A DNA stretch of 64,000 nucleotides from an uncultured Mycoplasmatota bacterium (GTDB lineage: Bacteria > Bacillota_I > Bacilli_A > RF39 > UBA660). A program made the translations under genes and the position numbers. Below the pieces are notes generated by a model, which was not told the origin of the DNA, ran no database searches, and saw nothing but the letters and a program-made list of their open reading frames with translations. Location: the NCBI GenBank assembly GCA_947646095.1, contig CANSFI010000001.1:8402-72401 (forward strand), in the 5' to 3' direction. Below, piece after piece: positions 23,196 through 57,604 of this stretch; within the stretch, counting starts at the first letter, position 1; every line of letters starts with the position of its first letter.

Positions 23196-23308
23196 GTTTT
23201 AGCAGCTTTGAATAGAATTTTATTAATTTAACTATAATGATAATAGGTGAGTATATGAAAAAAAGATAAATAATTATATCTATTAGTCTTATTATTGTTT
23301 TAGGTTTA

Positions 23309-28180: not shown

Positions 28181-28189
28181 GGGTTATTT

Positions 28190-29023: not shown

Positions 29024-29033
29024 AAGGTGTGTA

Positions 29034-30233: not shown

Positions 30234-30244
30234 GAGGTGATTTA

Positions 30245-31702
30245 ATGAGTAAAAAGAAAGTAGTTTTAAATTATATTTATAGTTCATTTTATCAACTATT
30301 CTTAATAATTGTTCCTCTTATCACAGCTCCATATTTAGCCAGAACTCTACTTCCAGAAGCAGTTGGTATCAATAGTTATGTAAGTTCAGTCGTTCAAATA
30401 TTTGGACTTTTAGGTTTAATTGGTTTAAATAATTATTCTATAAGAGAAATAGCTTATGTTAGAGATGATAAAGAAAAGTTAAATAAAGTATTTAATGAAC
30501 TATTTTTCTTAAGAATAATATGCTTTATTATTACTGTTATAGTGTATTTAATATATGCATATTTTTCAGAATATAGAATGTATTTTATAGTTCAACTGGT
30601 AGCTGTATTTGGAATATTTGTTGATATCTCTTGGTTATATGCTGGATTAGAAGAATTTAAAATGACAGTAACTAGAAGTTTTATTGTCAAAATAATTAAT
30701 GTTATAAATATATTTTTATTTATTCATGGACCAGAAGATTTATATTTATTCATGTTTATTTCTTCTGTATATTCTGCTATAGGAAATTTAATACTTTATA
30801 CTGGAATAAAAAAAAGAGTTGGAAAAATAAAAATAAAAAATTTAAATATCAAAAAACATTTAATACCAACTATAAAATTATTTGCACCACAAGTAGCTTC
30901 TTTAGTCTATCTTCAATGCGATAAAATGATGATTAAATTTTTAAGTGATAATGTAAGTAACGTTGGATTTTATGATCAAGCAGAAAGAATTGTTAAAATG
31001 CCACTTGCATTAATTACAGCATTAAGTAGTGTAATGTTGCCTAGAGTAGCAAATGAATTTAATAAAAACAACAAAGAAAATATAAAAAAATATGTAAAAA
31101 CAGCCTTTAACTTTTCACTGTTTATGGCTATTCCATTAATGTTTGGTTTAATAGCAATTTCTTCTACAATGATACCATGGTTTTTAGGTGATGGTTATGA
31201 CAAAGTTATATCTGTTATGATGATGGTTAGTCCAATTGTTTTATTTATTTCTTTATCTTCTGTATCAGGAACACAATATTTAACAGCAGTTAATAACACT
31301 AAACTTCTTACAATTTCTTATGTGATTGGTGCTATGTTAAATTTAATTATTAATTATTTCTTAATTCCAAAGTTTGGACCAGTTGGGGCAGCTATTGGTA
31401 CTGTAATAGCTGAATTTACAGTTTTCTTTGTTCAAATAATTAATATTAAAGAAATAATAAAATTTTCTGAACTTATATATATGGCATTTAAATATATAAT
31501 TTCAGGAATATGTATGCTTATAATCTGTATAATAGTTGGTAATTATTTTGGAACAACTATTATATCTACAATAATACAAATTATAAGTGGTTTTACTATT
31601 TATATGGTTTTACTATTTATATTTAGAGATAAATTTTTTATTGAAATATCAAATAAAATGATATATATTATTAAAAAAAGATTAATTAAAAAGATAGATT
31701 GA
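30245..31702 (+). CDS. Polysaccharide flippase (Wzx / MOP superfamily)
   Basis: 14-TM profile, ITAPYLARTLLPEAVGI N-terminus, and GPVGAAIGTVIAEF near the C-terminus. Confidence 0.8.
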   Translation: MSKKKVVLNYIYSSFYQLFLIIVPLITAPYLARTLLPEAVGINSYVSSVVQIFGLLGLIGLNNYSIREIAYVRDDKEKLNKVFNELFFLRIICFIITVIVYLIYAYFSEYRMYFIVQLVAVFGIFVDISWLYAGLEEFKMTVTRSFIVKIINVINIFLFIHGPEDLYLFMFISSVYSAIGNLILYTGIKKRVGKIKIKNLNIKKHLIPTIKLFAPQVASLVYLQCDKMMIKFLSDNVSNVGFYDQAERIVKMPLALITALSSVMLPRVANEFNKNNKENIKKYVKTAFNFSLFMAIPLMFGLIAISSTMIPWFLGDGYDKVISVMMMVSPIVLFISLSSVSGTQYLTAVNNTKLLTISYVIGAMLNLIINYFLIPKFGPVGAAIGTVIAEFTVFFVQIINIKEIIKFSELIYMAFKYIISGICMLIICIIVGNYFGTTIISTIIQIISGFTIYMVLLFIFRDKFFIEISNKMIYIIKKRLIKKID

Positions 31703-31714
31703 GGAGGTATTTTA

Positions 31715-32443
31715 ATGAAGGAAAAAAGAAAAACCATCGCACTGTTAACAGCGGCAGGGGTAGGAACAAGAACCCATCAAGATATTCCAAAACAATTTTT
31801 ACATATTGATAATAAACCACTTATAGTTTATACAATGGAGGCATTTGAAAAACATCCTAATATTGATGAAATTATTGTTGTATGCTTAGATGGATGGCAT
31901 GATATTCTAAGAGCATACGCTAAGCAATTCAATATAAGTAAATTAAAATATATTGTATCAGGTGGAAGTACTGGACAAGAATCAATATATAATGGTTTAA
32001 TTGAATTACAAAAACATTGTAATAAAAACGATATTGTATTAATTCATGATGGCAATAGAGCGTTAATATCACAAGAAATAATTTCAAATTCATTATCAAC
32101 ATTTGAAAAATATGGTAGTGCAGTAGCTGCTATTCCTTGTGTTGAAGCTATATTTATAAGTGATGATGGAGTTGTTTCAGAATCACAAATTCCAAGAGAA
32201 AAATTATTTAGAACACAGACACCACATGTATATACTTTGGAAAAATTATTATGGGCACATGATGAAGCTAAAAAAAGAGGTATCACTAACACAACTGCTT
32301 CATGTACACTAATGCAAATGTTAGGAGAAAAAACTTATTTTAGTATTGGATCTGAAAAAAATTTAAAGGTAACGACTATAGATGATATTGAAATGTTTCA
32401 AGCTTTGTTAAATACTCAATTATCAAACTACATAAAAAGGTGA
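31715..32443 (+). CDS. IspD/TarI-type alditol-phosphate cytidylyltransferase
   Basis: IALLTAAGVGTRTHQDIPKQFLHIDNKPLIVYT, IHDGNRALIS, FRTQTPH. The polysaccharide-locus context favours a TarI-like role over IspD. Confidence 0.75.
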   Translation: MKEKRKTIALLTAAGVGTRTHQDIPKQFLHIDNKPLIVYTMEAFEKHPNIDEIIVVCLDGWHDILRAYAKQFNISKLKYIVSGGSTGQESIYNGLIELQKHCNKNDIVLIHDGNRALISQEIISNSLSTFEKYGSAVAAIPCVEAIFISDDGVVSESQIPREKLFRTQTPHVYTLEKLLWAHDEAKKRGITNTTASCTLMQMLGEKTYFSIGSEKNLKVTTIDDIEMFQALLNTQLSNYIKR

Positions 32444-32446
32444 TTT

Positions 32447-33523
32447 ATGATTAATAATAAAAAATATGTAAAAAAAATAAATGAAATATGTGATTTGAAT
32501 TATGACTTTAATGAATTTAAAGGTAAAACATTTTTAGTGGTAGGTGCAACAGGTTTAATTGGAACATTTTTAATTGATGTATTAATGAATTTAAATAATA
32601 AATTAAAACTTAATTGTAATATTATAGCTGTATGTAGAAATGTAAATAAAGCAGAAGATAGGTTTTCAAAATATTTAAATTATAAAAATTTTAAAATATA
32701 TTCTATTGATATAAATCAAAAAATAGATATTGAAGATAGTATAGATTATATTATTCATGGCGCTAGTAATACTCATCCTTTAGCTTATTCTAATGACCCA
32801 ATAGGAACAATAACTACTAATGTAATAGGAACATATAATTTGCTTAATTTAGCTGTTCAGAAAAAAATAAGTAAGTTTATTTTTCTATCATCAGTTGAAA
32901 TATATGGAGAAAATAACACTGATAAAAAAGAATTTTCAGAAACAGATTTAGGTTATCTTAATTGTAATACATTAAGGGCTGGTTACCCTGAAAGTAAAAG
33001 ATTAGGTGAAGCATTGTGTCAAGCTTATATTAAAGAATCTGATTTAGATATAACTGTTGCCCGTTTACCAAGAGTATATGGTCCTACAATTTTAAAGGAT
33101 GATAGTAAAGCTTTATCACAATTTATTAATAAAGCAATTAATAATGAAAATATTATTTTAAAAAGTGAAGGAAAACAATTTTATTCTTATGGGTATGTAG
33201 GTGATATAGTATCTTCTATTTTATTTCTTATTTTAAATGGTGAAACTGGAGAAGCATATAATGTATCATCACCTAAATCAGATATAACACTTAAAGATTT
33301 AGCTAATTTAATTTCAAATTATGTTGGTAAGCAAGTTGTATTTGAACTTCCATCAGAACAAGAAAGAAAAGGTTATTCTACAGCAACCACAGCAATATTA
33401 GACTCATCCAAAATAAGAAATTTAGGTTGGACTGATATTACACCAATAGAGGAAGGAATTAAAAATACAATTGATATATTAAAAAAGGAAAATAATGAAA
33501 AAATTAATAATTCAAGCATTTAG
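32447..33523 (+). CDS. NAD-dependent epimerase/dehydratase (extended SDR)
   Basis: VVGATGLIGTFL Rossmann motif and YPESKRLGE (YxxxK). Confidence 0.8.
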   Translation: MINNKKYVKKINEICDLNYDFNEFKGKTFLVVGATGLIGTFLIDVLMNLNNKLKLNCNIIAVCRNVNKAEDRFSKYLNYKNFKIYSIDINQKIDIEDSIDYIIHGASNTHPLAYSNDPIGTITTNVIGTYNLLNLAVQKKISKFIFLSSVEIYGENNTDKKEFSETDLGYLNCNTLRAGYPESKRLGEALCQAYIKESDLDITVARLPRVYGPTILKDDSKALSQFINKAINNENIILKSEGKQFYSYGYVGDIVSSILFLILNGETGEAYNVSSPKSDITLKDLANLISNYVGKQVVFELPSEQERKGYSTATTAILDSSKIRNLGWTDITPIEEGIKNTIDILKKENNEKINNSSI

Positions 33524-33920
33524 TTTTTTTGGTATATCTGGCATAGGTTGGATAATGGATATGGTAGTATACACCATTTTAACATCCATAAGTATTAATG
33601 AATTAATTTCTAATATTATTAGTTCTGGAATAGCTGTAACTTTTGTATATTTAATTTCTACTAAAAAATTATTTAAAAATGGTAGTGAAAAAATAGATTT
33701 AAAGAAAAAATATATTTTATATATCATTTATCAAATAACAATGATCAGTTTTTCATCTTGTATTATTTTTAAACTTGCTAACGCTTTAATTAATACAAAT
33801 ATTTCTTTACTAATTAAATTTAATTCAATAAGTGCAAAAATTATTGTAACACCATTTACTATGGTAATTAACTTTATTTTTATGAAATTTTTAATAGAAA
33901 AAGTAGGTAAAAATGGATAG
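33495..33920 (+). CDS. GtrA-family membrane protein
   Basis: 141 aa with 4 TM helices. FSFFGISGIGWIMDMVVY and a C-terminal FIFMKFLIEK pattern. Confidence 0.7.
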   Translation: MKKLIIQAFSFFGISGIGWIMDMVVYTILTSISINELISNIISSGIAVTFVYLISTKKLFKNGSEKIDLKKKYILYIIYQITMISFSSCIIFKLANALINTNISLLIKFNSISAKIIVTPFTMVINFIFMKFLIEKVGKNG

Positions 33921-33958
33921 TTTTATATTAAAATATTTTAAATAATGAGAGGAGCAAT

Positions 33959-35050
33959 TTGATCCTTTTATTTTACTCAAAATTAAATTATTATTATCAT
34001 CTAATTTATGTTATAATTTCAGTGGGTGGTAGTATGGTTTTCATATTTTTATTATTGATAGTTATATATTTAATTAGTATTAAAATAAATTTTAAAGATC
34101 TAAATTTTAATTATATTGATAGAAGTAATACAACTATTATTAATGGAATATTTGTAGTTATTGTCTTTTTTAGTCATTTTTTAAGTTATAATACTAATTT
34201 AAATATTTATGATAAATCATTAAATTTTATAATTATAAAATTAGGACAACTAATAGTAGCAACTTTCTTATTTTATTCGGGATTTGGTATATATGAAAAA
34301 ATCAAAAAAAATAAAGAACAATATATTGATAGCTTTTTCAAAAAAAGATTTATTCCAACCTTTTTAAATTTTTGGGTAGCTATATTATTATTTTTATTAT
34401 TAAATTTAGTTTTAAAAAGGACATATTCAATAAAAAATATTTTACTTTCTTTTATAGGTTGGGAATCAATAGGTAATAGTAATTGGTATATGTTTGCTAT
34501 ATTTTATTTATATTTATCAGTTTTATTTAGCTTTAAATTATTTAAAGGAGAAGATAAATATAATTTAATAATTATAACTATATTAACATTTATATATGTT
34601 TATTATATTAATATATATAGATTTCCTCATTGGTGTACAACAATATTATGCTTTGTAGGTGGAATGTGGTATTCATTTTTTAAAGACAAAATAGATGCAT
34701 TTGTTATGAGAAATTTTAAGAGTTATATAGGTACTATTATTATTTCAGGTTTGTTATTACTTATCTTTTACCATGAACGAAGCAATATTTATATCCACAA
34801 TTTACTTTCGATTACCTTTGTTTTTATGATAAATTTGTTTAATATGAAAGTAACATCAAATAGTAAAATACTATTATTTTTAGGAAAAAATGTTTTTTGG
34901 ATTTACATTTTACAAAGAATTTCCATGATAATATTTCAAAATAGATTGAATATTTATTTATATTTTATTATTTGTTTAAGTATCACTTTAGTACTTGCTA
35001 TAATTTTAAAAAATATAACATCAAAATTATGGAACAAATTATTGAAATAA
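33959..35050 (+). CDS. Acyltransferase family 3 membrane protein
   Basis: INGIFVVIVFFSHF motif and multi-TM profile. TTG 33959 has AGGAG 5 nt upstream; ATG 34034 is an alternative start. Confidence 0.6.
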   Translation: MILLFYSKLNYYYHLIYVIISVGGSMVFIFLLLIVIYLISIKINFKDLNFNYIDRSNTTIINGIFVVIVFFSHFLSYNTNLNIYDKSLNFIIIKLGQLIVATFLFYSGFGIYEKIKKNKEQYIDSFFKKRFIPTFLNFWVAILLFLLLNLVLKRTYSIKNILLSFIGWESIGNSNWYMFAIFYLYLSVLFSFKLFKGEDKYNLIIITILTFIYVYYINIYRFPHWCTTILCFVGGMWYSFFKDKIDAFVMRNFKSYIGTIIISGLLLLIFYHERSNIYIHNLLSITFVFMINLFNMKVTSNSKILLFLGKNVFWIYILQRISMIIFQNRLNIYLYFIICLSITLVLAIILKNITSKLWNKLLK

Positions 35051-35055
35051 ATTAA

Positions 35056-35093
35056 AATAGATTGATTAGAATATTTATAATTAATCTATTTTT
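35056..35093 (+). terminator. Rho-independent terminator inside the glycopolymer locus
   Basis: AATAGATTGATT / AATTAATCTATT 12-bp stem with one mismatch, followed by T residues. Confidence 0.45.
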
Positions 35094-35146
35094 ATTATTC
35101 AAAATTTAGAACATTCGGTAATAGGGTATATAACATATTATTCTCA

Positions 35147-35497
35147 ATGGTAGTACATAGAAAAATATATGATTTAGGTTCAGGACTAAATATGTATAAA
35201 GTAAATAGTTTAGAAAGTGAATATTATTTAAAATTTCCAGATAATTTAACTTTCAATTGTTATATGCTTTTAGCAATTAATTGTTATAAACAAAAAATAA
35301 AGTTTTTTCCAATATCTTGGAGAGAAGATGATCAAGTTTCAAATGTTAAAATGGTAAGTCAGGCATTTAATACTTTTAAACTAGTATTATCTTATCTTTT
35401 TAAAAGAAAAAGATATTTACAATCGGAATTGAGAACTAAAATAGTATCTGATTATAATTTCGAAACAATTTATGAGAAAAAGAAAGGATCTAAATAA
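35147..35497 (+). pseudogene. C-terminal remnant of a GT2 (bactoprenol/dolichol-phosphate glycosyltransferase-like) gene
   Basis: Only the last ~115 aa are present (FPISWREDDQVSNVKMV...), with no catalytic N-domain and no RBS. It lies after a terminator. Confidence 0.4.
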
Positions 35498-35498
35498 A

Positions 35499-36239
35499 AT
35501 GAAAAAGATACATTTAATTATGCCAATGGGTGGGGCTGGTTCAAGATTTTTCAAAGATGGTTTTATTGTTCCAAAACCACTTATTGAAATTTATGATAAA
35601 CCTTTTTTATATTGGGCTACAAAAAGTATAACTAATTACATTGATATTTATGATCTTACTTTTGTTGTATTACAAGAGCATATTGATAAATTTAAAATAG
35701 ATGAAGTTATAAAAAAATATTTCAAAGATGCTAATATTGTATTTATTCCTGAAGTATTAAAAGGAGCAGTTTTAACATGCATTGAAGGAATTAAAAACAT
35801 TAATGATGATTTGCCAATAGTTTTTAATGATTGTGATCATATTTTTAGATGTCAAAGTTTTGCTGATTATTGTAATAAAGGGGAATTTGATGATATAGAT
35901 GGAGCATTACTATCTTTTAAATCAAATGATCCTAAATTTAGTTTTTTGAAACTTAATTATCAAGGATATGTAATAGAAACAGTAGAAAAAGTAGTTGTTA
36001 GCAATAATGCAATTTGTGGAGCATATTATTTTAGAAATAAAGATTTATTTTTAAAGATGACTAATGAATATTTAGAAAAGTGTAATTATTCAGAATATTT
36101 TGTAAGTGGTGTTTATAACATTATGGCATCTCATAATAAAAAAATAGTAAACTTTAATGTTGATAGTCACGTACCATTTGGAACACCAGAAGAATATGAG
36201 ATTGCTAAAAAATCAAATGAATTTGAGGTTTTAAAATAA
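35499..36239 (+). CDS. Sugar/alcohol-phosphate nucleotidyltransferase
   Basis: IHLIMPMGGAGSRFFKDGFIVPKPLIEIYDKPF is the N-terminal NTP-transferase signature. Confidence 0.7.
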   Translation: MKKIHLIMPMGGAGSRFFKDGFIVPKPLIEIYDKPFLYWATKSITNYIDIYDLTFVVLQEHIDKFKIDEVIKKYFKDANIVFIPEVLKGAVLTCIEGIKNINDDLPIVFNDCDHIFRCQSFADYCNKGEFDDIDGALLSFKSNDPKFSFLKLNYQGYVIETVEKVVVSNNAICGAYYFRNKDLFLKMTNEYLEKCNYSEYFVSGVYNIMASHNKKIVNFNVDSHVPFGTPEEYEIAKKSNEFEVLK

Positions 36240-36242
36240 ACT

Positions 36243-38138
36243 ATGAGTTATATATTTCTTACATTAGCTATTTTGGTTTTAATAATAGCTCATTTAATAA
36301 AAATATATCGATGGAAACTATTTATTGGTATATATGAAATTCCAAAAGATAAAATTTTGTTGAATTCTCTTTCTTGGGGGTATTTAATAAATACCTTTAT
36401 TCCCTTTCATATTGGAGATTTATTTAGAGCATTTATTTCTGGTAGAAAAATGAAAAATGGGGTTTCTTTTTCATTAGCTACTATAATAGTAGATAGATTT
36501 TTAGATATTTTAATAATAGCAATTTTATTCATATCGTTATATTTTTTAGGATTTAGAAGTAAGATTGTTTTAAATTCAGTCGTATTTTATATATTTTTGT
36601 TTATTTTTATAGTTTTGTTTATTTTATTTGGCATAAAGAACAATAAATGTATAAAGCATATTATAAAAAATATATCAAGTATTTTTAACAAATCAATAGA
36701 ACTAAAAATATTGAAGACAACATGGTTTACAATTAATACCTTTAAAGACTTACTTAATAAAATATCAAAATTAAAGTTATTTAGTAGTACATTTTTTATG
36801 TGGGGAATGTATTTTATATCATATGCGTTATTCGCATTATCTTTAAAGAGTAGTGGATATAATGTAGGATTAATTGATATTTTGTTATCATTATTTGCTT
36901 CTGGAAATATGCAAGCCTCTACTATAGGAATGATTATTAATTTAACAGATATTGGTTTAATGACACTAGTTTATTTAATTGTCCCTGTTATTATAATGTT
37001 AATTTATTCATATTTTATAAGAGAAAATGTACCTAGTAAAAATACAAGTTATATTAATATTGTTCCACATATTAAAGAAAATGATCGTTTAGCTTTTTTA
37101 GAGGCCTATTTTGAAGGAAATAATCGTGAATATTTTAAAAATTATATGAAAATTAATAGTGATATTTCAATTATTCAGGATTATTCTGCTGGTAGTAATG
37201 CTACTACTATGCTATGCACTGATGATACTTCAATGTTTTATCGTAAATATGCTTTTGGAAGTGCTGGACAAAAACTTTATGAGCAAGTAAATTGGATTAT
37301 TGAGCATCAAAAGGCAATATCATTAACGAGTATCAATAACATAAAAAAAAGTAATGGATATTGTTGTTATGATATGCCATATTTAAAAGAAAGTATTGGA
37401 TGTTTTAATTATATTCATTCAACAGATGTTAAAACTAGTTGGAATTTATTAGAAAAAGTATTAAATGATTTAGAAAAAAATTTATATTGCCTTAATAAAC
37501 GGATTGCTGATAGTAAAAGTATAAAAAAATATATAGAATCAAAGGTTATAAATAATTTAAAAATTTTAACTGATTCTAAAGAAGTAAAAGAATTAGAAAA
37601 ATATGATTATTTAATTATTAATGGTAAAAAATATAAAAATTTTAAACATTTTGAAAAATATTTAAATTCGGAGTATCTATATAACATATTTAAAAATGAT
37701 AAATATTCTGATATTCATGGAGATTTAACAATCGAAAATATTATATGTATGCAAACAGGCAAAAATAACTATTATATTATTGATCCCAATACAGGAAACA
37801 TTCATGATTCCGCTAATTTAGATTATGCAAAACTATTACAGTCTTTGCATGGAGGATACGAATTTTTAATGCATACACCATCAGTTGATGTTGTTGCTAA
37901 TAAAATCAATTATATGCGAAGTAGAACATCTATATATGATGAAATTTTTGAAAAGTATAAAGATTATTTAGAACAAAAATTTGGATTAGAAAAGACAAAA
38001 AGTATTTTTTATCATGAGATTGTACATTGGCTTAGATTGTTACCATATAAAATAAACAAAGACCGAGATAGATTTATTATGTTTTATGCAGGTTTTATTA
38101 TTGTTTTAAATGAGGTGATTGAGTTTTATGAAAAATAA
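36243..38138 (+). CDS. Fusion of an LPG-synthase-type TM (flippase-like) domain and an APH/choline-kinase-like kinase domain
   Basis: N-terminal half: HLIKIYRWKLF...NTFIPFHIGDLFRAF with about 8 TM helices. C-terminal half: kinase-like Brenner motif IHGDLTIENII and YIIDPNTG. Confidence 0.6.
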   Translation: MSYIFLTLAILVLIIAHLIKIYRWKLFIGIYEIPKDKILLNSLSWGYLINTFIPFHIGDLFRAFISGRKMKNGVSFSLATIIVDRFLDILIIAILFISLYFLGFRSKIVLNSVVFYIFLFIFIVLFILFGIKNNKCIKHIIKNISSIFNKSIELKILKTTWFTINTFKDLLNKISKLKLFSSTFFMWGMYFISYALFALSLKSSGYNVGLIDILLSLFASGNMQASTIGMIINLTDIGLMTLVYLIVPVIIMLIYSYFIRENVPSKNTSYINIVPHIKENDRLAFLEAYFEGNNREYFKNYMKINSDISIIQDYSAGSNATTMLCTDDTSMFYRKYAFGSAGQKLYEQVNWIIEHQKAISLTSINNIKKSNGYCCYDMPYLKESIGCFNYIHSTDVKTSWNLLEKVLNDLEKNLYCLNKRIADSKSIKKYIESKVINNLKILTDSKEVKELEKYDYLIINGKKYKNFKHFEKYLNSEYLYNIFKNDKYSDIHGDLTIENIICMQTGKNNYYIIDPNTGNIHDSANLDYAKLLQSLHGGYEFLMHTPSVDVVANKINYMRSRTSIYDEIFEKYKDYLEQKFGLEKTKSIFYHEIVHWLRLLPYKINKDRDRFIMFYAGFIIVLNEVIEFYEK

Positions 38139-38691
38139 ATTAGCAATCTTTGATATGGATGGAACATTATTTGATACAAAAGATGTTAATTATCATGCAT
38201 ATTTAAAAGCTTTGCAAAAATTTAATTTTAATATCAACTATGATTATTATTGTAGCGAATGTAATGGTAGATTATATAAACAATTTTTACCTACAATTAT
38301 TGGAGAAAACAATAATAAAATAATGGAAAAGATACATGCTATAAAAAAAGAAAGTTATGGCGAATTTTTAGATAAAGCTATTGTGAATAATCATTTATTT
38401 GAAATACTTAATTTAATAAAAGAAAAATATTATATCGCGTTAGTTACAACAGCTTCTAAACAAAATACCTTAGATATTTTAAAAAAGTTTAATAAAACTG
38501 ATTGTTTTGATTTAATTTTGACCCATGATGATATAATCAACCCAAAACCAAATCCAGAAGGATTTATTAAAGCTATGGATTATTTTAATATAAAATCAGA
38601 TAATTGTATTATATTTGAGGATTCTAAACCAGGAATTGAAGCTGCTATAAATAGTGGTGGAAGTGTTTTTGTTGTTAAGGGATTTAATTAA
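38128..38691 (+). CDS. HAD-superfamily hydrolase
   Basis: AIFDMDGTLFDT (DxDGT), VTTASK, FEDSKPGIEAA. RBS GAGGTGA 9 nt before ATG 38128. Confidence 0.8.
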   Translation: MKNKLAIFDMDGTLFDTKDVNYHAYLKALQKFNFNINYDYYCSECNGRLYKQFLPTIIGENNNKIMEKIHAIKKESYGEFLDKAIVNNHLFEILNLIKEKYYIALVTTASKQNTLDILKKFNKTDCFDLILTHDDIINPKPNPEGFIKAMDYFNIKSDNCIIFEDSKPGIEAAINSGGSVFVVKGFN

Positions 38692-38703
38692 GGTAGGTGA
38701 CAT

Positions 38704-40254
38704 ATGAAAAATAATTTAATAAGTATTATTATAGCTTTAATACATTTTATAATCACTTTTTTTACTGATAAATTAATAATTAATTTTGACAAATTTAATA
38801 TCATTAATTATATTGGATGTAAAATATTACTATTAATAATTTTATTCTTTACTTATAGATTTTTGATAAAAATTTTTATTGAAAAAGATACAGAATCTAA
38901 AAAGTATTTTAAACATTTTCTAATATGTTTTATACCACTTTTTATTATATTTCTTTTTGTTTATCCAGGTATTTGGTTTGGAAGTGATGTATTTAATTTC
39001 TTTTCTTTTACAACAGGAGTAGATTTCCTTTATTATTTGCATTATCTATCTTCAGTATTTTATTCAATTGGTTTAATGATTTTTCCTGTACCAAGTGGGG
39101 CTATTTTATTACAAGTAATTATGTTTTGTATAGTTATATCTTATATAACTAAAAATACGTTTGAATTATTTAATAATAAAAAAATATGTTATTTGATATA
39201 TTTACCACTTTTCTTAATGCATACACTTTTTTATGTATATTTTGCTAACCGCCCTATTATGTTTGGAATAGCCTATTTATTTTTAATTAGTATTTTAGTA
39301 TTTGATTATTTATTTAAAAATAAGCTTACAACAAAAAAATTAATAATTTTAATAGTTTTAAATGGGGTAGTAGCTAATTGGCGAAGCGAAAGTATTTATT
39401 TAGTGTTAGCGTTACCTTTATTAGTGTTTATTGTATATAAAGAAAGTATTAATTTAAAAAACATTTTAAAAATAGGTTTATCATTTTTATCAGTCTTTAT
39501 TTTAGTATCTATACCACAACGTTTAGATGGAAAATCTTTAAGCAGAAATCTACCGATGGTTGTAAATCCTTTATCATATATGTTAACTCAAGATTTAAAG
39601 GGTGAAAATTTAGAAGAAAATTTAGCAAAAATCAATAAAGTATTAGATATAGAAATTATGAAGAAAAATGCTTCTTATATTGAAACATATGCTATTTGGA
39701 AAGATGGAGGTTGTATTAAGAAATTTACTGAAGAGGAATATAAAGAATTTTTAAATGCTTACATTGATATTGTTAAAAATAATTTTCCAATTTTTATTAA
39801 AACAAAATTATTAACATTTGCGAATGCAAGCGGTATTTATATCGATAATTTTACTTCTAAAAATTTATATTCTAATGAAAATGATAGAGTGTTAGATCGA
39901 AAAGATACTAAAACAATTTTTGGATATAAAACTAGAAAATTTGTTGTTTCTATTTTAGAAGGAAAAGCATATAATAGTGATATACCTTGTAGACCATACT
40001 GTTTAACAAATAATTTTTTGATTCCAATAATTATAATTGGTTTGTTATTTGTAACTTCAATATTTAAGAAAGATTTATTTTTGTTTTTAATTTGTGGAAT
40101 GTTATTAGGTCATACATTTATACTATTTATTACTGCACCTGCTAGTTATTTTATGTATTACTTTAATGTATTTTTGACAGGATGGTTTATAGGTATGATT
40201 TATTTAATAAAAATGATAGTTGAGTTTAAAAATAAAAAGCCAAAATTATCATAA
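38704..40254 (+). CDS. Large polytopic membrane protein, last gene of the glycopolymer locus
   Basis: 516 aa with more than 10 TM helices and a ~150-aa soluble loop. No family recognised. Confidence 0.45.
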   Translation: MKNNLISIIIALIHFIITFFTDKLIINFDKFNIINYIGCKILLLIILFFTYRFLIKIFIEKDTESKKYFKHFLICFIPLFIIFLFVYPGIWFGSDVFNFFSFTTGVDFLYYLHYLSSVFYSIGLMIFPVPSGAILLQVIMFCIVISYITKNTFELFNNKKICYLIYLPLFLMHTLFYVYFANRPIMFGIAYLFLISILVFDYLFKNKLTTKKLIILIVLNGVVANWRSESIYLVLALPLLVFIVYKESINLKNILKIGLSFLSVFILVSIPQRLDGKSLSRNLPMVVNPLSYMLTQDLKGENLEENLAKINKVLDIEIMKKNASYIETYAIWKDGGCIKKFTEEEYKEFLNAYIDIVKNNFPIFIKTKLLTFANASGIYIDNFTSKNLYSNENDRVLDRKDTKTIFGYKTRKFVVSILEGKAYNSDIPCRPYCLTNNFLIPIIIIGLLFVTSIFKKDLFLFLICGMLLGHTFILFITAPASYFMYYFNVFLTGWFIGMIYLIKMIVEFKNKKPKLS

Positions 40255-40261
40255 TCTCAAT

Positions 40262-40290
40262 TTGACTAATTGCATAAAATATGTTAGAAT
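40262..40290 (+). promoter_or_regulatory. Near-consensus sigma-A promoter driving the structured RNA
   Basis: TTGACT (40262-40267), 17 nt, TGtTAGAAT (extended -10, 40285-40290). Confidence 0.6.
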
Positions 40291-40296
40291 TAAATT

Positions 40297-40926
40297 TGTA
40301 AATCAAGTGGCACATTATTCTAGTCAATATGATTTATTATGAAGACGGGGCTAAAAATCCGTTAAAGAGCATATCTGTGAAACTTTTGGTGCTTGCTTCT
40401 TACGCCCAGTTTGGGGTGGGTGCTGGAAGGTAGAGTGTTGGGCGCACGTAATGGCATACGTCAAACGACCCAGCATTCATGGAGACCTAAACTTGTGGTA
40501 AGCATATACACATTGATTGTTGATCTGACTTACTACGACTTAGGCTTGAACCTACTTTGTGGCGAAAGTTATGAGTAGTGTAGCTTGTCTTGAGTGGATA
40601 CTTGGGATAAATGATCTATTTTAAATAATTTATAGCTAAAGTTATTTAAAAATCGCATTTTGAAACTGTATCTGCAAAAAAGAATTAATAATAAATCAAT
40701 TGAGGAGGAAATCTCCTAGAGTGACATTAATATGGGATTGCAGTGCGTACTAAGTGGCAATCGAGTAATATATTAGGTGACTATATATCTATTTCTTTAA
40801 AGGGGAACCGCAAGATGGTAACGTCTTGTAGAAATAGGGGAAATCCAACTCGACCTAAGACGTAAAGTTAACTATATTAATAGCCATACAAACAAGATTA
40901 TAAAGGGAATTTCCCTTTTTATTTTT
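40297..40926 (+). ncRNA. ole: Large structured ncRNA of about 630 nt, interpreted as OLE (ornate, large, extremophilic) RNA
   Basis: A GC-rich island in a 25% GC genome with no credible ORF and many local and long-range complementary segments. Examples: ACGTA/TACGT, AGGAG-GAAAT-CTCCT, ACGTCTT/AAGACGT, TTAAATAA/TTATTTAA. It has its own promoter and ends in AAAGGGAATTCCCTTT plus a T-run. A small OapA-like membrane protein gene lies immediately downstream. The 5' end is estimated. Confidence 0.55.
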
Positions 40927-40941
40927 GAATAGAGGTGGCTT

Positions 40942-41484
40942 ATGGCAAAAAAGAAAAACAATGAATCTATATGGATATTGAAAATAACTTTTCTAGCTTT
41001 CTTTATATCAATGATATTTTCCTTTGTTTCAGAAATCGCATTAAGCAATACTAACATTATAATAGGTACAATAATTTTATTAGTATTTATTTTACTTGGT
41101 GTATTTTTTGATATGGTAGGAGTAGCTGTTACAGCGGCTGATGAAAAACCATTACATTCAATGAACGCAAGAAAAGTTAAAGGAGCAGATGTAGCAACCA
41201 TATTTAAGAAGAATGCTGCTAAAGTATCATCATTTTGTAATGATGTAGTAGGTGATATTTGTGGAATAATCTCTGGTTCTGCTGGAGTTGTAATAGCTGC
41301 ATCCATAACTAAAATTATAAGTATTAATCCATTATATATAAGTTTAGTAATTACAGCTTTAGTAGCGTCCCTTACTATTGGTGGTAAAGCTGTAGGTAAA
41401 GGCATAGCTATAAAAAATAGTAATAAAATCCTATATGGATTTTCTAAATTTATATCGTATTTTTATCATCCTAAAAATAAGTAA
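40942..41484 (+). CDS. oapA: Small 4-TM DUF21/CNNM-TM-like membrane protein, interpreted as the OLE-associated protein OapA
   Basis: 180 aa. SEIAL motif in TM1 and a DVVGD (DxxxD) motif. RBS AGAGGTGG. It begins 16 nt after the RNA terminator. Confidence 0.55.
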   Translation: MAKKKNNESIWILKITFLAFFISMIFSFVSEIALSNTNIIIGTIILLVFILLGVFFDMVGVAVTAADEKPLHSMNARKVKGADVATIFKKNAAKVSSFCNDVVGDICGIISGSAGVVIAASITKIISINPLYISLVITALVASLTIGGKAVGKGIAIKNSNKILYGFSKFISYFYHPKNK

Positions 41485-41504
41485 TATCATTTATATATGA
41501 ATTA

Positions 41505-41533
41505 TTGATAAAAATAATTGATGATGTTATAAT
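41505..41533 (+). promoter_or_regulatory. Orphan consensus promoter with no ORF downstream
   Basis: TTGATA (41505-41510), 17 nt, TGtTATAAT (41528-41533). The next ~160 nt contain only ORFs of 9 codons or fewer. Confidence 0.4.
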
Positions 41534-41677
41534 GTTTAGTATTTTATGTAACATTTTGTGTAATCAAAATGTGTTATAAAATTATTGCACCAAATTTCTG
41601 ACAAATATGCTTATAAGGGGAAAGTAAAGTTTTTCTATTTTGGATTTTTCTCTAATTTTTGAATATTGAGTGATATT

Positions 41678-41702
41678 AATATCAAAATGATATTATTTTT
41701 TT
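41678..41702 (+). terminator. Weak AT-rich terminator-like hairpin about 160 nt after the orphan promoter
   Basis: AATATC-AAAAT-GATATT followed by A and 7 T residues. The stem has only one GC pair. Confidence 0.3.
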
Positions 41703-41707
41703 AACTT

Positions 41708-42209
41708 TTAAATACAATTTCCCCTTACTACTAAAGTATGGAATCCTGAAATAAATTCATTTTTTATATGGGCGACTTCACTAACACGAAGGCCACAGAA
41801 AAAAAACAAGTAAAAGCCAATATTTGTGTTTTAAGTGTTTTTTATAATTAACTATTTTTACAAATTGTTCTGTTGGAAGAATAGTAGGTAACCTTTTAAT
41901 CACTTTAGAAGTTGGTAGTAATAATTTGTCGAAACGTTTATTAAAACAAACGATATATAACAATTTTATTGAAGCAACAGCAACATTGTAAGTGTATTTA
42001 CTTTTATTTGGTTTAATAAAACAATCGTTTAAATAAGGAATAATATCTTGTTCTGATAAGAGGGTTATATCAGTATTTGAATCATAATATGTAAAGAAAT
42101 TGTTTAAAGCACATTTGTAGTTTATAAATGTGTTTTCACTGCACCACCTTAACGTTAAGTTTTCATGGATTTTGTTAATCCATAATTTTTGATTTTCATC
42201 AGTATTCAT
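41708..42209 (-). pseudogene. Tyrosine recombinase (XerC/D-integrase type), frameshifted and 3'-truncated
   Basis: N-terminal SAM-like core-binding domain. The ORF stops at 41781. A 1-nt shift in the 8-nt homopolymer at 41799-41806 restores CGLRVSEVAHIK (box I with the catalytic Arg). The frame then ends at 41708, and the rest of the catalytic domain is absent. Confidence 0.7.
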
Positions 42210-42653
42210 AAAAAAATCTCTTCAAATTACTAAAGAGAGAAATAGGATTTTGAAATTTCTAAAAATAGTGTATAATATTAAGCGTGTTGAAACTATTTGT
42301 CTCTTTAGTCGGAACTATAGTATACCAACACTTTTTATTTTGCAAGACTTTATACAAAGTAATGACTTTTTGTCAGAAATTTGGTACAATTGATATAGGG
42401 TAATGGTGATAGTTTGAAAAATAAAAATGAAAATAATAACACATAAAAAAGTATTTTAGTTCAACAAGTTTAAAACTTGAAGAAATTAAGATAAATAGAT
42501 CTTTGAAATTGTTAAATATTTGTTGGGTTTAAATTAAGAATAGAAGTATCTATTCCAAGTTTAGATAACGTTTTTAAAGCGTTGTCTATAATTTGTTGAC
42601 GTTTATTTTCTAAAACTTCATTTGGAATATCAGAATAATTGATATCAATGGGA

Positions 42654-43712
42654 TTAAATATTTTCACCAGTTTGAAACATTTTATAAATACAAGTAAGCA
42701 TCATACGAGCAATAGCAATAATAGCTTTCCTATGACCATGTCTTTTCTTGATTTTAAGATATTTGTTTTTGAAATAAGGTTCCTTATTAGATTTAATGGC
42801 AGCATTAACACATTGAACAAGAGTTGGTTTAAGATAAACACCAGCAGAGAAACACGAGTAGATTTCTTTTTACCAGCACTTTCATTGTTCTGGGGTGTAA
42901 GACCAGCCCAATTACAAAGTTTCTTTGTAGTTGAAAATAAAGACATATCAGTTCCTATTTCAGAGACAATAATCATAGCAGATGTTTCAGAAATGCCAGG
43001 TACAGTCATTGCTAAATTAACATAAGGTCTTAACTCATTATTATTAATAATATAATTACTAGCATCTTCAATAGAGTTAATTGTATCATTAATAGAATTA
43101 AGATGAGTACTAGAAGCTTTTAATTTAGAAATAGTAGAATCAGGCATTGAAAATCCTTGGATAGATGTTATAATATCATCAGATTTTGATTTAGCAGATT
43201 TACCGAAGAGGTCTGATAAAACAAAATCTAAAGAGATATTAGATATAGTAAGTGAGTTTTGAATTCGTTGTTTTTCAGAAGAAGACATATTAACGAGTTT
43301 GAAACGATAACTTAATAGTTCTCTTAAATTTCTAATATGTTTAGGTGGAATAAAAGACCCAAAGCAAAGATTATGTTTGAATAAATCAGTAATCAAAATA
43401 GAATCTTTCTTGTCGGTCTTTTTTTCCTTTTACAGCTTTAATATACTTAGGATTAGCAATAGTGATATTAAAATTATCTTCTAAGATGTTAAAGATAGGA
43501 ATCCAATATTTACCAGTAGATTCCATACAGACATCATAACAATTATTAGATATTAACCAATCCTTAAAAATATTGATATTTTTATTATGAGTATAAAAGT
43601 TTTTAGTTTGATACGAAGTAACACCATGTTCATTGGTAGTACCAATCGTAGCAACAATAAAAGATTTGTGAACATCAACACCACAACAAATAGGACGAAC
43701 AATTTTAAGCAA
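42654..43712 (-). pseudogene. IS110-family (DEDD) transposase with at least two frameshifts
   Basis: N-terminus: CCGVDVHKSFIV...CMESTGKYWIPIF. C-terminus: LCNWAGLTPQNNESAGKKKS. The tail AGVYLKPTLVQCVNAAIKSNKEPYFKNKYLKIKKRHGHRKAIIAIARMMLTCIYKMFQTGENI reads in a third frame. TTG start with RBS AAAGGAG. Confidence 0.85.
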
Positions 43713-43736
43713 AAAATCACTCCTTTATGTAAATAA

Positions 43737-43923
43737 TAAAGAAGCATTAAACTAGTTATTCAAACACTGAAATATCAAGGATAAATCCAATGATTAGTTT
43801 ACGGACTTGAAGTATCACTTATTTGTGCTTGAGAAGAACAACTGACACATGTTATTATACAGACTTATCATCAAGAGGTGATGATTTCTACTCACCTCAC
43901 CATGCTTTGTAGTTGCTTCTTTA
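43737..43923 (-). ncRNA. Candidate IS110 bridge-RNA-like structured region upstream of the transposase
   Basis: 10-bp closing helix TAAAGAAGCA (43737-43746) / TGCTTCTTTA (43914-43923) enclosing 187 nt with internal hairpins such as ATCATCA-AGAGG-TGATGAT at 43867-43885. GC content is higher than the surroundings. The position matches where the IS110 family encodes its guide RNA. Confidence 0.25.
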
Positions 43924-44028
43924 GTAATTTACAAGAGTGTATTATATAAAAAAATAAATAGAAAGAACATATTTTTTGTAACGATTTGTGTCGGAAGCGA
44001 CATAGTCGCGAACGAAATGGAGGTTATT

Positions 44029-44496
44029 ATGAAAAAAGTACTTTTTATAGCTTCAACAGGAGGACATTTATCAGAATTATTACAATTAAAATCATGCTTT
44101 AATAATTATGATTACTATTTAATTACTGAAAAAACAAATTCAACAAAAAGCTTAACCAATCAGTATTCAAATGTAGACTATTTAGTATTTGGAACAAAGG
44201 ATCATATAGTTTCATATATATTTAAATTTGGTTGGAATAGTTTAAAATCGTTATATCTATATTTTAAGATAAGACCACAATATATAATTACTACTGGAAC
44301 TCATACAGCTGTACCTATATGTTATATTGGTAAAATTTTTGGTAGTAAAATTATTTTTATAGAAACATTTGCTAATAGTGAGTCAAAAACTTTAGCTGGT
44401 AAAATGCTTTATCCAATATCAAATTTATTTATAGTTCAATGGGAATCTATGCTTAAACTATATCCTAAATCAATATATGGCGGTTGGATTTATTAA
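44029..44496 (+). CDS. Alg14-like / Cps14F-PssD-type glycosyltransferase membrane subunit
   Basis: KKVLFIASTGGHLSELLQL... and FIETFANS motifs. GGAGG 5 nt before ATG 44029. Confidence 0.8.
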   Translation: MKKVLFIASTGGHLSELLQLKSCFNNYDYYLITEKTNSTKSLTNQYSNVDYLVFGTKDHIVSYIFKFGWNSLKSLYLYFKIRPQYIITTGTHTAVPICYIGKIFGSKIIFIETFANSESKTLAGKMLYPISNLFIVQWESMLKLYPKSIYGGWIY

Positions 44497-44498
44497 AT

Positions 44499-45062
44499 AT
44501 GATATTAGTAACTCTCGGAACTCAAGATAAAAGCTTTGAAAGATTATTAAAAGCTGTTCAAAAAGAAATAAATAGTGGGAATATTAAGGATAAAGTAGTA
44601 GTACAAGCAGGTTATACAAAATTTAAAAGTAAAGATATGGAAATATTTGAATTAGTTCCAATAGAAGAATTTGATACTTTAATAAAAAAATGTGATTTAT
44701 TGATAACTCATGGTGGAGTTGGTTCAATTATAGCAGGACTTAAAAATAATAAAAAAGTAATAGCAGTTCCAAGATTAAAAAAGTTTGGGGAACATACAAA
44801 TGATCATCAATTACAAATAATTAAAAATTTTTCTAACGCTGGTTATATTTTAGAACTTAACAATTTTAATAAACTTGGCGAAGTTATAAAAGAAAGTAAA
44901 AGCTTTAAACCAAAGAAATATAATAGTAATACTAAAAATATGATTAATCTTATCACAAGTTATATAAATAATGATTCAAAAAAATTTCATCCAATTAGAA
45001 GACTTTTATTATTTGTAATAATTTTACTACTATTATATTTATTATTAAATAATTTAAAATGA
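44499..45062 (+). CDS. Alg13-like / Cps14G-PssE-type glycosyltransferase catalytic subunit
   Basis: MILVTLGTQDKSFERLL and LITHGGVGSI motifs, with an extra C-terminal TM. Starts 3 nt after the partner's stop. Confidence 0.8.
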   Translation: MILVTLGTQDKSFERLLKAVQKEINSGNIKDKVVVQAGYTKFKSKDMEIFELVPIEEFDTLIKKCDLLITHGGVGSIIAGLKNNKKVIAVPRLKKFGEHTNDHQLQIIKNFSNAGYILELNNFNKLGEVIKESKSFKPKKYNSNTKNMINLITSYINNDSKKFHPIRRLLLFVIILLLLYLLLNNLK

Positions 45063-45087
45063 TTACATTGAATAAATGTAATTTTTT
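45062..45087 (+). terminator. Rho-independent terminator
   Basis: ATTACATT-GAATA-AATGTAAT perfect 8-bp stem followed by TTTTTT. Confidence 0.75.
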
Positions 45088-45165
45088 CTTGTAAAAAAAG
45101 TAAAAAAATGATATTATAATTATTATTTTTTAGAAATTAAATATTAAATGAATTGAGGTGAAACT

Positions 45166-45734
45166 ATGGTGTATGATAGTATATTTATAACATCAAAAAG
45201 TTAAAAGCAATTAACAAAAGAACAAATATGTGATTACTTTAAAAAATATCATAATAATGACATTAATATTAGAAATAAGTTTATAGAATCTAATATAGAT
45301 TTAGTTACATCATATGTACTCAAACATTTTCCAGCTTTTAAATATGATCAAAAAGAATTAGTCTATATTGGAATGATTGTTCTTATTAAAGGATTAAGTA
45401 GTTTCGATATAACTAAATGATTTGATTTTTCAATTTATACAAGTGTATGTATAAGAAATGAAATACTTAAATTTAAAAAAAGAAAATAAACATATCAGAA
45501 ATATTATAAATGAATTGCTTGATAGAGAAAAAAATTATAATACTTTATTTCTGTTTTGAAAATTATAAATTATATAAACAAAAAGACATATCTTGTAAGT
45601 TAAATTTATCACAATCAATTGTTTACAATGTGTTAAAGAATATATTAAAAAAAATAAAACAACAATTGTTAGAAATAGGCACTATTGAAATTAATAGTTA
45701 TAATAAAAAATTAAAAGCCAATAAAACTTATTAA
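45166..45734 (+). pseudogene. Decayed sigma-70-family factor gene
   Basis: RBS GAGGTGA plus ATG. Region 2-like IGMIVLIKGLSSFDITK*FDFSIYTSVCIRNEILKF. In-frame TAA (45202) and TGA (45418). The region 4 HTH (LNLSQSIVYNVLKNILKKIK) lies in a different frame (45510-45734). Confidence 0.65.
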
Positions 45735-48493: not shown

Positions 48494-49033
48494 ATGGATT
48501 TAAAAGGATCAAAAACAGAACAAAATTTAATGGCTGCTTTTGCTGGTGAAAGTCAAGCTAGAAACAAATATACTTATTATGCTTCAAAAGCAAAAAAAGA
48601 AGGTTATGAACAAATAGCTGCAATTTTTAAAGAAACAGCTGATAACGAAAAAGAACATGCTAAAATATGGTTTAAATTATTACATAATAAAGAAGTACCT
48701 AATACAATTGAAAATTTAAAAGATGCTGCAGCTGGTGAAAATTATGAATGGACAGATATGTATGCTTCATTTGCTGAAACAGCTAAAGAAGAAGGTTTTA
48801 ATCATATTGCTTTTCTATTTGAAGCAGTTGGAAAAATTGAAAAAGAGCATGAAGAAAGATATAAATCATTACTTAATAATATCGAAAGTAATACTGTATT
48901 TACAAAAGAAGTACCACAAATGTGGATTTGTCGTAACTGTGGACATGTACATTATGGAGAAAAAGCACCAGAAGTGTGTCCAGTATGTAATCATCCAAAA
49001 GCATATTTTGAATTACGTAGTGAAAATTATTAA
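48494..49033 (+). CDS. rbr: Rubrerythrin
   Basis: Diiron four-helix motifs ([40 protein letters not shown]) plus a C-terminal rubredoxin-like CRNCG...CPVCNHP. Confidence 0.9.
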
Positions 49034-49042
49034 TAAATTTAA

Positions 49043-49066
49043 AATGGAGTTTTTACTTCATTTTTT
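49043..49066 (+). terminator. Terminator after rbr
   Basis: AATGGAGT-TTTT-ACTTCATT (8 bp including one G-U) followed by T residues. Confidence 0.4.
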
Positions 49067-49117
49067 CATTTATTTATAAAAAACATGATATAATGTACTA
49101 AAAGGAGCTGATAAACA

Positions 49118-50356
49118 ATGGATAAAAAAATATTAAATGCTATAAATAATGAACTAATTCGTCAACAAAATAATATCGAATTAATTGCATCTGAAAACTT
49201 TGTGAGTGAGGATGTAATGAAAATACAGGGTAGTGTATTAACTAATAAGTATGCTGAAGGATATCCTAGTAAAAGATATTATGGAGGGTGTACTAATGTA
49301 GACACTATTGAAAGTTTAGCTATTTCATACGCTTGTGAATTATTTGGTTGCAAATATGCAAATGTTCAACCACATAGTGGTAGTAGTGCTAATATGGCTG
49401 TTTACAAAGCTTTATTAAATAATGGTGATAAAGTATTGGGAATGAATTTAGATCATGGTGGCCATTTAACACATGGGCATAGAATAAATTTTAGTGGTTT
49501 AGATTATAATATAATTTCTTATAATGTAGATGAAAATACAGGATTAATTGATTATGATAAATTAATGGAAATTGCAAAGGTAGAAAAACCTAAAATGATC
49601 ATAGCAGGTGCTAGTGCTTATTCTAGGACTATCGACTTTAAAAAATTTAGAGAAGCTGCTGATAGTTGTGGGGCAGTTCTTATGGTTGATATGGCCCATA
49701 TAGCAGGTTTAGTAGCAACAAATCTTCATCCATCACCATTTCCTTATGCAGATGTTGTAACAAGTACTACTCATAAAACTTTAAGAGGACCTAGAGGTGG
49801 ACTTATTTTAACTAATAATGAAGAAATTATAGATAAAATTAATAAAACTATTTTTCCTGGTATTCAAGGTGGTCCTTTGATGCATGTAATAGGAGCTAAA
49901 GCAGAATGTTTTTATGAGGCTTTAAAACCAGAATTTAAAGAATATCAAAATCAAGTATTAAAAAATATAAAAGCATTATCTAATACTTTAATAGAAGAAG
50001 GATTTAAAATTATTTCTGGTGGAACTGATAATCATTTAATATTAGTTGATGTAAAATCAAGTGTTGACATGAATGGAAAAGAAGCAGAGCAAATATTAGA
50101 AAGTATAAATATAACTTGTAATAAAAATATGATTCCAAATGATTTAGAGTCACCATTTAAAACAAGTGGTATTCGTTTAGGGAGTCCTGCTATGACTAGT
50201 CGTGGACTAAAAGAAATAGATTTTGAAAATATTGGGCATATTATAGCTGTCTCTTTAAAAAATAAAGATAATATCGAAATATTAAATCAATTGAGATCAG
50301 AAGTAAAATCTATAACTGGTAAATATCCATTATATAAAGAGGTAAATTATGAGTAA
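49118..50356 (+). CDS. glyA: Serine hydroxymethyltransferase
   Basis: [25 protein letters not shown], and [16 protein letters not shown] (PLP lysine). Confidence 0.95.
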
Positions 50357-51197: not shown

Positions 51198-51249
51198 TAT
51201 AAATTAAATAAAATTGATAATTTTAGTTATAATAATATTGGTGATTATT

Positions 51250-52140: not shown

Positions 52141-52217
52141 GGCGATGTAGCTCAGTTGGCTAGAGCAACCGGTTCATACCCGGTAGGTCGTGAGTTCGAA
52201 TCTCTCCGTCGCTACCA
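52141..52217 (+). tRNA. Elongator tRNA-Met (anticodon CAT) with encoded CCA
   Basis: Cloverleaf: acceptor GGCGATG/CGTCGCT with G1-U72, D-arm GCTCAGTTGGCTAGAGC, anticodon arm ACCGG-TTCATAC-CCGGT, and T-loop GTTCGAATC. It resembles Bacillus elongator Met rather than initiator or Ile2. Confidence 0.9.
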
Positions 52218-57371: not shown

Positions 57372-57388
57372 TGGAAAGGAATAAGATT

Positions 57389-57595: not shown

Positions 57596-57604
57596 GGGAA
57601 AATT

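Follow-up and report, generated by a model that had tools for sequence, protein, structure and literature searches.

A full-length OLE RNA gene and its partner oapA in a reshuffled surface-glycan region of an uncultured gut Bacilli genome

We analysed a 64,000-nucleotide (nt) stretch of DNA from an uncultured Mycoplasmatota bacterium (contig CANSFI010000001.1; 23.0% G+C), hereafter the window, to which all coordinates refer. The window almost certainly carries a functional ole-oapA module, that is, a gene for OLE RNA (ole; 40291-40903, plus strand) followed by a gene for its membrane anchor OapA (oapA; 40942-41484, plus strand), in an AT-rich lineage of uncultured gut Bacilli. Both the RNA and the protein are under conservation. 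The neighbourhood of the pair is non-canonical, which is a trait of the lineage combined with local rearrangement around a variable glycopolymer cluster and not a sign of a different element. An earlier reading of the bare sequence (the original prediction) had proposed an OLE-like RNA with an OapA-like protein in an atypical genomic context; here we give the evidence that bears on each part of that proposal.

When the whole window was searched with Rfam 15, the OLE model (RF01071; 616 positions, gathering score 50) matched at 40291-40903 (+) with 408.9 bits (E = 1.2e-116), covering model positions 1-616 of 616 without truncation; apart from one tRNA, this was the sole structured-RNA match. 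The covariance-model search that the original prediction had named as its check thus bore out the OLE assignment. The same prediction had described about 630 nt that were GC-richer than their surroundings, free of open reading frames (ORFs) and dense in helices, and the RNA proved to be 613 nt long with 36.1% G+C, its longest plus-strand ORF being 61 amino acids (aa). A permissive Rfam scan (E ≤ 1) of 39500-45500 returned neither ROOL, GOLLD, raiA or HEARO, which had been listed as alternatives, nor any other Rfam family besides OLE. An unclassified large RNA, the fallback that the prediction had kept, is ruled out.

Structural conservation agrees with the model match. RNAalifold applied to 24 OLEs (that of the window and 23, found with nhmmer, from genomes encoding OapA homologs) gave 153 consensus pairs, 98 of which show compensatory changes on both sides, with a covariation term of -31.3 kcal/mol. 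By covariance model and covariation, the RNA at 40291-40903 is a full-length OLE. Nearly all upper-case nucleotides of the Rfam consensus are retained, and most helices have been rebuilt with A-U pairs. The RNA has stems that match P7, P8 and the long P9, which places it with the full-length type and not with the reduced variants of RF39 and TANB77. The only notable gap in the alignment (window 40725-40735; columns 511-531 of alignment A2) corresponds to a small 12-nt hairpin at Rfam positions 424-435, flanked by the GAGGAAAUCUCC hairpin and the long-range helix that comes next. This small hairpin is present in Clostridia OLEs and in the Rfam consensus and absent in all OLEs of the uncultured Bacilli clade, so that its absence is a lineage trait rather than decay. 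As a separate observation on OLE copy number, one Oscillospiraceae contig (locus L075, from a metagenome-assembled genome (MAG)) carries two full-length OLEs of 426.7 bits each, inverted and about 5.3 kb apart (2465-3135(-) and 8408-9078(+)); only the second copy precedes oapA, and an inverted duplication or an assembly artefact could explain the pair.

The 180-aa protein encoded immediately downstream is, as judged from its sequence features, OapA. Its ATG (40942) lies on the same strand, 38 nt past the end of the OLE model and about 15-16 nt past a T-run, and the SEIAL (residues 30-34) and DVVGD (residues 101-105) motifs and four hydrophobic segments (hydropathy) of the predicted four-helix membrane protein are all in place, as originally described. 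Across 29 aligned homologs (84% down to 44% identity), F98, C99, N100, D101, V102, G104 and D105 do not vary, and neither do a GGKAxGK block and FDxxG; the FCNDVVGD motif contains the DxxxD pair D101/D105, a distinctive OapA feature that is missing from CNNM domains (PMC11332333). Pfam found a CNNM domain (PF01595) at 24.6 bits, just below the 28.4 cut-off, and no other domain, neither a CBS pair nor CorC_HlyC, which together with the DxxxD motif identifies the protein as OapA and not MpfA. Such a sub-threshold CNNM match is exactly the behaviour reported by Fernando and Breaker, in whose analysis OapA forms the next-best cluster below the true CNNM/MpfA proteins (PMC11332333). NCBIfam yielded only noise far below its cut-offs.

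An AlphaFold2 model (mean pLDDT 80.9, pTM 0.72) places long helices at residues 7-35, 39-65, 92-126 and 130-158. When the model was compared with the PDB using Foldseek, the top four matches were all CorB/CorC CNNM transporters (probability 1.00, TM-score 0.48-0.57), all others falling below a probability of 0.2; the confident matches comprise the archaeal CNNM protein MtCorB (7m1t and 7m1u) and the CorC transmembrane domain (7cff). The top structural match reported for Halalkalibacterium halodurans OapA is likewise 7M1U (PMC11332333). A sequence search of the PDB with the 180-aa protein gave no match, which indicates that no OapA structure has been deposited as a protein chain. A search for the family returned 7,404 matches at E ≤ 0.001. 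The ratio of nonsynonymous to synonymous substitution (dN/dS) of oapA is 0.07-0.15 against four relatives, with dS near saturation, and by this comparison of sequences the gene is intact and under purifying selection.

The association of RNA and protein was assessed in a set of 80 genome loci that encode a homolog of the 180-aa protein (designated by L-numbers), in which OLE was sought by nhmmer with the window OLE as query. In 76 of the 80, an OLE precedes the gene on the same strand, a linkage that, with the hallmarks given above, upholds the original assignment of the protein to OapA. Two of the remaining four loci end at a contig edge, and the other two (L030 and L073) have no OLE in the flank. 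These last, from Bacilli MAGs, encode OapA homologs of 55-60% identity (at 6426 in L030 and about 6470-6600 in L073) with no OLE detected by nhmmer or Rfam in roughly 6 kb upstream or in the flank downstream; oapA may be unlinked there, or ole may have been lost. The gene pair can also be split, since in L005, L011, L032, L038, L045 and L076 an insertion of 2.4-5.8 kb separates OLE from oapA. The closest loci, whose OapA is 71-75% identical and whose flanks are syntenic, come from MAGs labelled Bacillota or Bacilli, which agrees with the Bacillota host expected for OLE; NCBI labels among the nearest relatives include uncultured Bacilli, Bacillota, Tenericutes and Mollicutes.

Upstream of ole, a putative sigma-70-type promoter (40262-40290 (+)) consists of a -35 box TTGACT (40262-40267), a 17-nt spacer ending in TGT and a -10 box TAGAAT (40285-40290), precisely the TTGACT-17-TGtTAGAAT arrangement that had been predicted. 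It scored 10 of 12 consensus matches plus the extended -10 TG in a scan for both. The three closest loci (L001, L002 and L016) carry the pattern AATTTGAC(A/T)-17-TGnTAnAAT/TGATAnnnT equally far from OLE, as do most loci of the Bacilli clade for AATTTGAC(A/T)...TGnTAnAAT, and in B. halodurans a proximal OLE promoter has been proven and is highly active, with some co-transcription with neighbouring genes (PMC3413148). This conservation and this analogy suggest that 40262-40290 is an active promoter.

At the other end of ole, a hairpin (AAAGGGAATTTCCCTTT, 40902-40918) is followed by TTATTTTT, together forming a weak intrinsic terminator-like element (40902-40926 (+)) where an intrinsic terminator had been described at the RNA 3′ end. 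Its GGG/CCC stem is kept in L001, L002 and L016 with differing loops and the same TTTTTATTTTT tail, which is consistent with a role as a partial terminator. The original prediction had regarded a terminator between the RNA and oapA as part of what set this locus apart; its presence and the conservation of its stem stand, but it is not peculiar to this locus, as a simple energy-based scan of the OLE-oapA interval detected a hairpin with a T-run in 9 of 24 Bacilli-clade loci and in 12 of 44 others. A hairpin and T-run before oapA is thus a recurrent minority arrangement. The sequence GAGGTGG (40932-40938 (+)) reads as the ribosome-binding site of oapA, and equivalent GAGGTGA sites precede the ATG in L001, L002 and L016.

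From the OLE promoter of B. halodurans and the conserved layout here, we infer a single promoter and a leaky terminator, with abundant RNA and limited read-through into oapA. The strong extended -10 promoter would, by analogy with Halalkalibacterium halodurans and Clostridium, produce an abundant 613-nt RNA. Most transcripts would stop at the weak hairpin and T-run, and a fraction would continue through the 15-nt gap into oapA; with oapA having no promoter of its own past the terminator, one promoter would give much RNA and little protein. The CNNM-like four-helix OapA would dimerise in the membrane and bind the RNA, forming a membrane-associated OLE ribonucleoprotein of the kind that the model organism needs in order to withstand alcohols, cold, excess Mg2+ and poor carbon sources. 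This layout, a promoter ahead of ole and a seemingly leaky terminator ahead of oapA, is found repeatedly in the clade, suggesting a simple way of setting the ratio of RNA to protein.

It is unlikely, by contrast, that ole and oapA are separate transcription units divided by a fully insulating terminator, with an oapA promoter inside the 3′ end of ole. A weak promoter-like site within OLE (TCGACC-17-TATATT, 40850-40878) is the sole internal candidate for such a promoter, and some relatives (L009, L014 and L020) have a second, obvious promoter between the hairpin and oapA. The internal site, however, matches at only 9 of 12 positions and is made of conserved OLE nucleotides (GACCUAAG...), so that RNA constraints account for it; the 15 nt or so between the T-run and the ATG are too few to hold a promoter past the terminator; and a hairpin of -7.1 kcal/mol is compatible with read-through. 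The best promoter-like site of the region lies elsewhere, just past the oapA stop codon (41505-41533 (+); TTGATA-17-TATAAT with TG, 11 of 12). No plus-strand ORF of at least 60 aa follows it before 42639, and the next family-matched plus-strand gene is Alg14 at 44017; the site may be a promoter orphaned by rearrangement or the driver of a small RNA.

Several points weigh against reading the locus as a functional ole-oapA module with this mode of expression. Promoter-like sites of the quality of that at 40262-40290 are not above chance in 2.1 kb (16 found against 14.6 expected), so that in AT-rich DNA the pattern alone is weak evidence and its support comes from conservation. The terminator hairpin is weak and, at z -0.97 against shuffled sequences, not significant alone. 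The likeness of the window protein to the studied OapA of H. halodurans and Clostridium botulinum is one of described features. We know of no member of the OLE class for which the biochemical function of the RNA has been established. No S1 domain (as in the S1-like OapB) or L7Ae domain (as in the L7Ae-like OapC) was present in ten small ORFs scanned of 25 candidates, all within the 64-kb window; both proteins are largely absent from reduced gut clades (PMC11332333).

The genomic context was compared with the canonical OLE cluster, represented by a Tepidanaerobacteraceae MAG (L070) in which the order is Asp23-nusB-xseA-(xseB)-ispA-OLE-oapA-tlyA/ftsJ-...-nadK-argR-recN. In tblastn searches with the L070 proteins, NusB, XseA and IspA were each found in 22-23 of the 80 loci and TlyA, NadK, ArgR and RecN in 42-44; Clostridia loci other than L070 contribute 20-21 per upstream canonical gene and about 40 per downstream gene. 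All matches fall in Clostridia-type loci (L029-L079), except for nusB-xseA downstream of oapA in L002 and L016. The context described in the original prediction (nusB, folD, xseAB and ispA) was recovered there as nusB-(folD)-xseA-ispA-OLE-oapA-...-tlyA-nadK-argR-recN. None of the seven proteins had a match in the 64-kb window, where folD is the only gene of the canonical cluster, 9 kb downstream and paired with glyA. The claim of an atypical context therefore holds in that the canonical genes are absent, but the atypicality is not peculiar to the window: the cluster is missing across the whole uncultured Bacilli clade, which has recurrent neighbours of its own. The cultured Clostridium ihumii (L080) is non-canonical as well, with transporters on both sides. 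The canonical cluster, in full nusB-(folD)-xseAB-ispA-ole-oapA-dxs-tlyA-nadK-argR-recN, is typical of, and does not define, OLE, and it is the only typical feature lacking here.

The window instead shows, in order, genes syntenic with relatives, a 16-kb glycan block, OLE-oapA, an integrase fragment, a split IS110 transposase and an Alg14-Alg13 pair. The syntenic genes (19655-24520) encode a dockerin/SH3 protein, a cadherin-like protein and a polysaccharide deacetylase and are shared with L001 and L086. The block that follows (24530-40254 (+), about 16 kb; Pfam and tblastx against L001) encodes GT1, O-antigen-ligase-like, GT2, deacetylase, TagF-like glycerophosphotransferase, Wzx-like flippase, epimerase, acyltransferase, nucleotidyltransferase, LPG-synthase-like and HAD proteins and a 516-aa membrane protein. 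It is the glycopolymer locus that had been noted upstream, and by tblastx the nearest relative, L001, has no such block at the corresponding place. Downstream of oapA lies the mobile-element debris that had likewise been noted (41781-43712 (-); Pfam Phage_int_SAM_4, Transposase_20 and DEDD_Tnp_IS110), namely a truncated, N-terminal integrase ORF (41781-42209 (-)) and an IS110-family transposase split into two overlapping minus-strand ORFs (Transposase_20, 231 aa, 42701-43396; DEDD, 108 aa, 43386-43712). Beyond it follow the Alg14-like and Alg13-like glycosyltransferase genes (44017 and 44484; 44017-45062 (+)) and a block of rubrerythrin (48494), glyA (49118), folD (50349) and SDR (51214) genes (48494-52029 (+)), all assigned by Pfam.

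These two groups of genes are clade-typical neighbours of the pair, and in the window all of them lie, reshuffled, within 10 kb of the locus. The order Alg14-Alg13-OLE-oapA occurs in L001, L026 and L086, and Alg14/Alg13 lie nearby upstream in L011, L014, L020 and L032; the order oapA-Rbr-GlyA-FolD-SDR occurs in L017, and L013, L018, L019, L021 and L035 have part of it (Rbr, alone or joined by GlyA, FolD or SDR). In L001 and L086, ole-oapA sits between the Alg14/Alg13 priming glycosyltransferases and flippase/polymerase genes; in the window, it has Alg14/Alg13 on one side and another glycan block, of 16 kb, on the other. L086 has a different glycan block, downstream of oapA, and this difference from the window locates ole-oapA within a variable, reshuffled surface-glycan region. 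The stretch homologous to L001 opens no more than about 10 nt before the -35 box and closes with the stop codon of oapA, limits that imply that any move carried the functional unit intact.

Whether the pair is in fact a stable resident of the surface glycopolymer cluster in this gut Bacilli sublineage, possibly with a functional link to it, is doubtful, and we would put little weight on it. If a functional linkage were true, the OLE ribonucleoprotein would be coupled to the synthesis or export of envelope glycopolymers, and such coupling would fit a recent proposal that places part of OLE RNA at the outer face of the membrane.

It is very unlikely that ole-oapA is a passenger, horizontally acquired or recently transposed, that the adjoining integrase/IS110 element delivered. 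The truncated integrase and split IS110 stand directly downstream, a 22-nt inverted repeat brackets the integrase fragment, and the order of ole-oapA and Alg14-Alg13 is swapped relative to L001 and L086, all of which would suit such a history. Yet the closest OLE and OapA come from the clade whose flanking genes are also closest; the dockerin, cadherin-like, deacetylase, Alg14 and Alg13 genes are syntenic in L001 and L086, where there are no mobile-element genes; and the L001 homology spans exactly the -35 region to the oapA stop, as expected if any move took the whole functional unit. No direct or inverted repeats were found that bracket ole-oapA as an inserted element. The pair thus appears vertically inherited, and the mobile remains mark local rearrangement rather than import. 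An assembly artefact is ruled out by five independent public assemblies (ENA, JGI, Logan and NCBI), each of which shows the entire arrangement together with the mobile-element debris at 99.5-99.9% nucleotide identity; the IS110 split is identical in all five.

That the OLE RNA is a decaying relic, non-functional since the rearrangement, can be set aside with near certainty: pseudogenised mobile-element genes adjoin it and the hairpin of model positions 424-435 is missing, but that hairpin is missing clade-wide, nearly all invariant nucleotides are retained, 408.9 bits is within the full-length range, OLE-oapA is 83% identical to L086 at the DNA level against 74-78% for flanking coding DNA, the promoter and terminator are conserved, and oapA is intact and under purifying selection.

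Other features of the window were recorded in passing. The repeat around the truncated integrase ORF (41584-41605 and 42369-42390; 95% complementary) may represent the ends of a small decayed mobile element. The roughly 300-nt leader of the IS110 element (43713-44000 (-)) has no Rfam match and folds somewhat better than shuffled sequences (z -2.29); it could be the guide ('bridge') RNA region of that element. A 96-aa ORF (2201-2491 (+)), whose match to a DDE transposase is confined to the C-terminal end of the latter, is a further mobile-element fragment. After the SDR gene comes a tRNA gene (52141-52214 (+)); the same tRNA follows the rubrerythrin region in L013 (96% identity in a translated comparison), which supports conserved synteny of the downstream block. 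About 24 kb upstream of ole, a NusG_II-domain gene and the gene next to it (16349-17228 (+)) are syntenic with L086, where the second is Hpre_diP_synt_I; they have no visible tie to OLE. A copper-resistance-type operon (57069-59812 (+)) encodes a CsoR-like metal-sensing repressor, an HMA-domain chaperone and a P-type ATPase with an HMA domain.

In kind, the locus adds nothing to what is already known; it is a correct identification of a known element. A published GTDB-based survey of 2,822 Bacillota genomes dealt with OLE in uncultured gut lineages with reduced genomes, variants included (PMC11332333), so that the type of lineage was already represented, and published neighbour statistics for 730 species include cell-wall biosynthesis among the associated processes (PMC12265935); the locus itself is in public assemblies, and Rfam would annotate this copy automatically. 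Its value is comparative. OLE is among the largest bacterial RNAs that lack a known biochemical function, and each identified copy adds slight comparative data. Here a full-length OLE of extreme AT-richness has been rebuilt with A-U pairs in nearly all of its helices, which makes it useful for covariation analysis, and it comes from a clade in which a linkage to surface-glycan genes, specific to that clade, replaces the isoprenoid/DNA-repair cluster.

Among known membrane proteins, MpfA, CorB and CorC (Mg2+ exporters of the CNNM family) share the fold of their transmembrane domain with the window OapA and are its best and only confident structural matches; the window protein differs from them in lacking the CBS pair and CorC_HlyC and in carrying DxxxD, which CNNM domains do not have. 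Its counterpart is the OapA of Halalkalibacterium halodurans and Clostridium botulinum, to which we liken it through the published description: a small four-helix membrane protein encoded directly downstream of ole, with DxxxD, weak CNNM similarity and a CorB-like predicted fold. By analogy with these proteins, the window OapA would dimerise and bind RNA.

The RNA corresponds to the full-length type of OLE (RF01071; PMC11332333) in its length of about 610 nt, in the alignment of all major stems to the model, P7, P8 and the long P9 included, and in the conserved blocks that it keeps (CUAGUCA, the CUAAAAAUCC loop, GCCCAG, AAUGGCAU, UAAAGGGGAACCGC, GGGAAAUCC and GACCUAAG); oapA downstream, a promoter of its own upstream and a host of the Bacillota anaerobe type are likewise shared. 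It differs from that type in being far more AT-rich (36% G+C, with stems of A-U pairs), in lacking, with the rest of its clade, the 424-435 hairpin, and in lying outside the nusB-xseA-ispA / tlyA-nadK-argR-recN cluster. The host type, an uncultured gut bacterium with a small AT-rich genome seen only in metagenomes, is that of OLE 'variant 2' (RF39 clade) and 'variant 1' (TANB77) (PMC11332333). Whereas P7 and P8 are altogether missing from variant 2, and P7-P9 are reduced in length in variant 1, the window OLE keeps P7-P9 and scores in the range of full-length OLEs.

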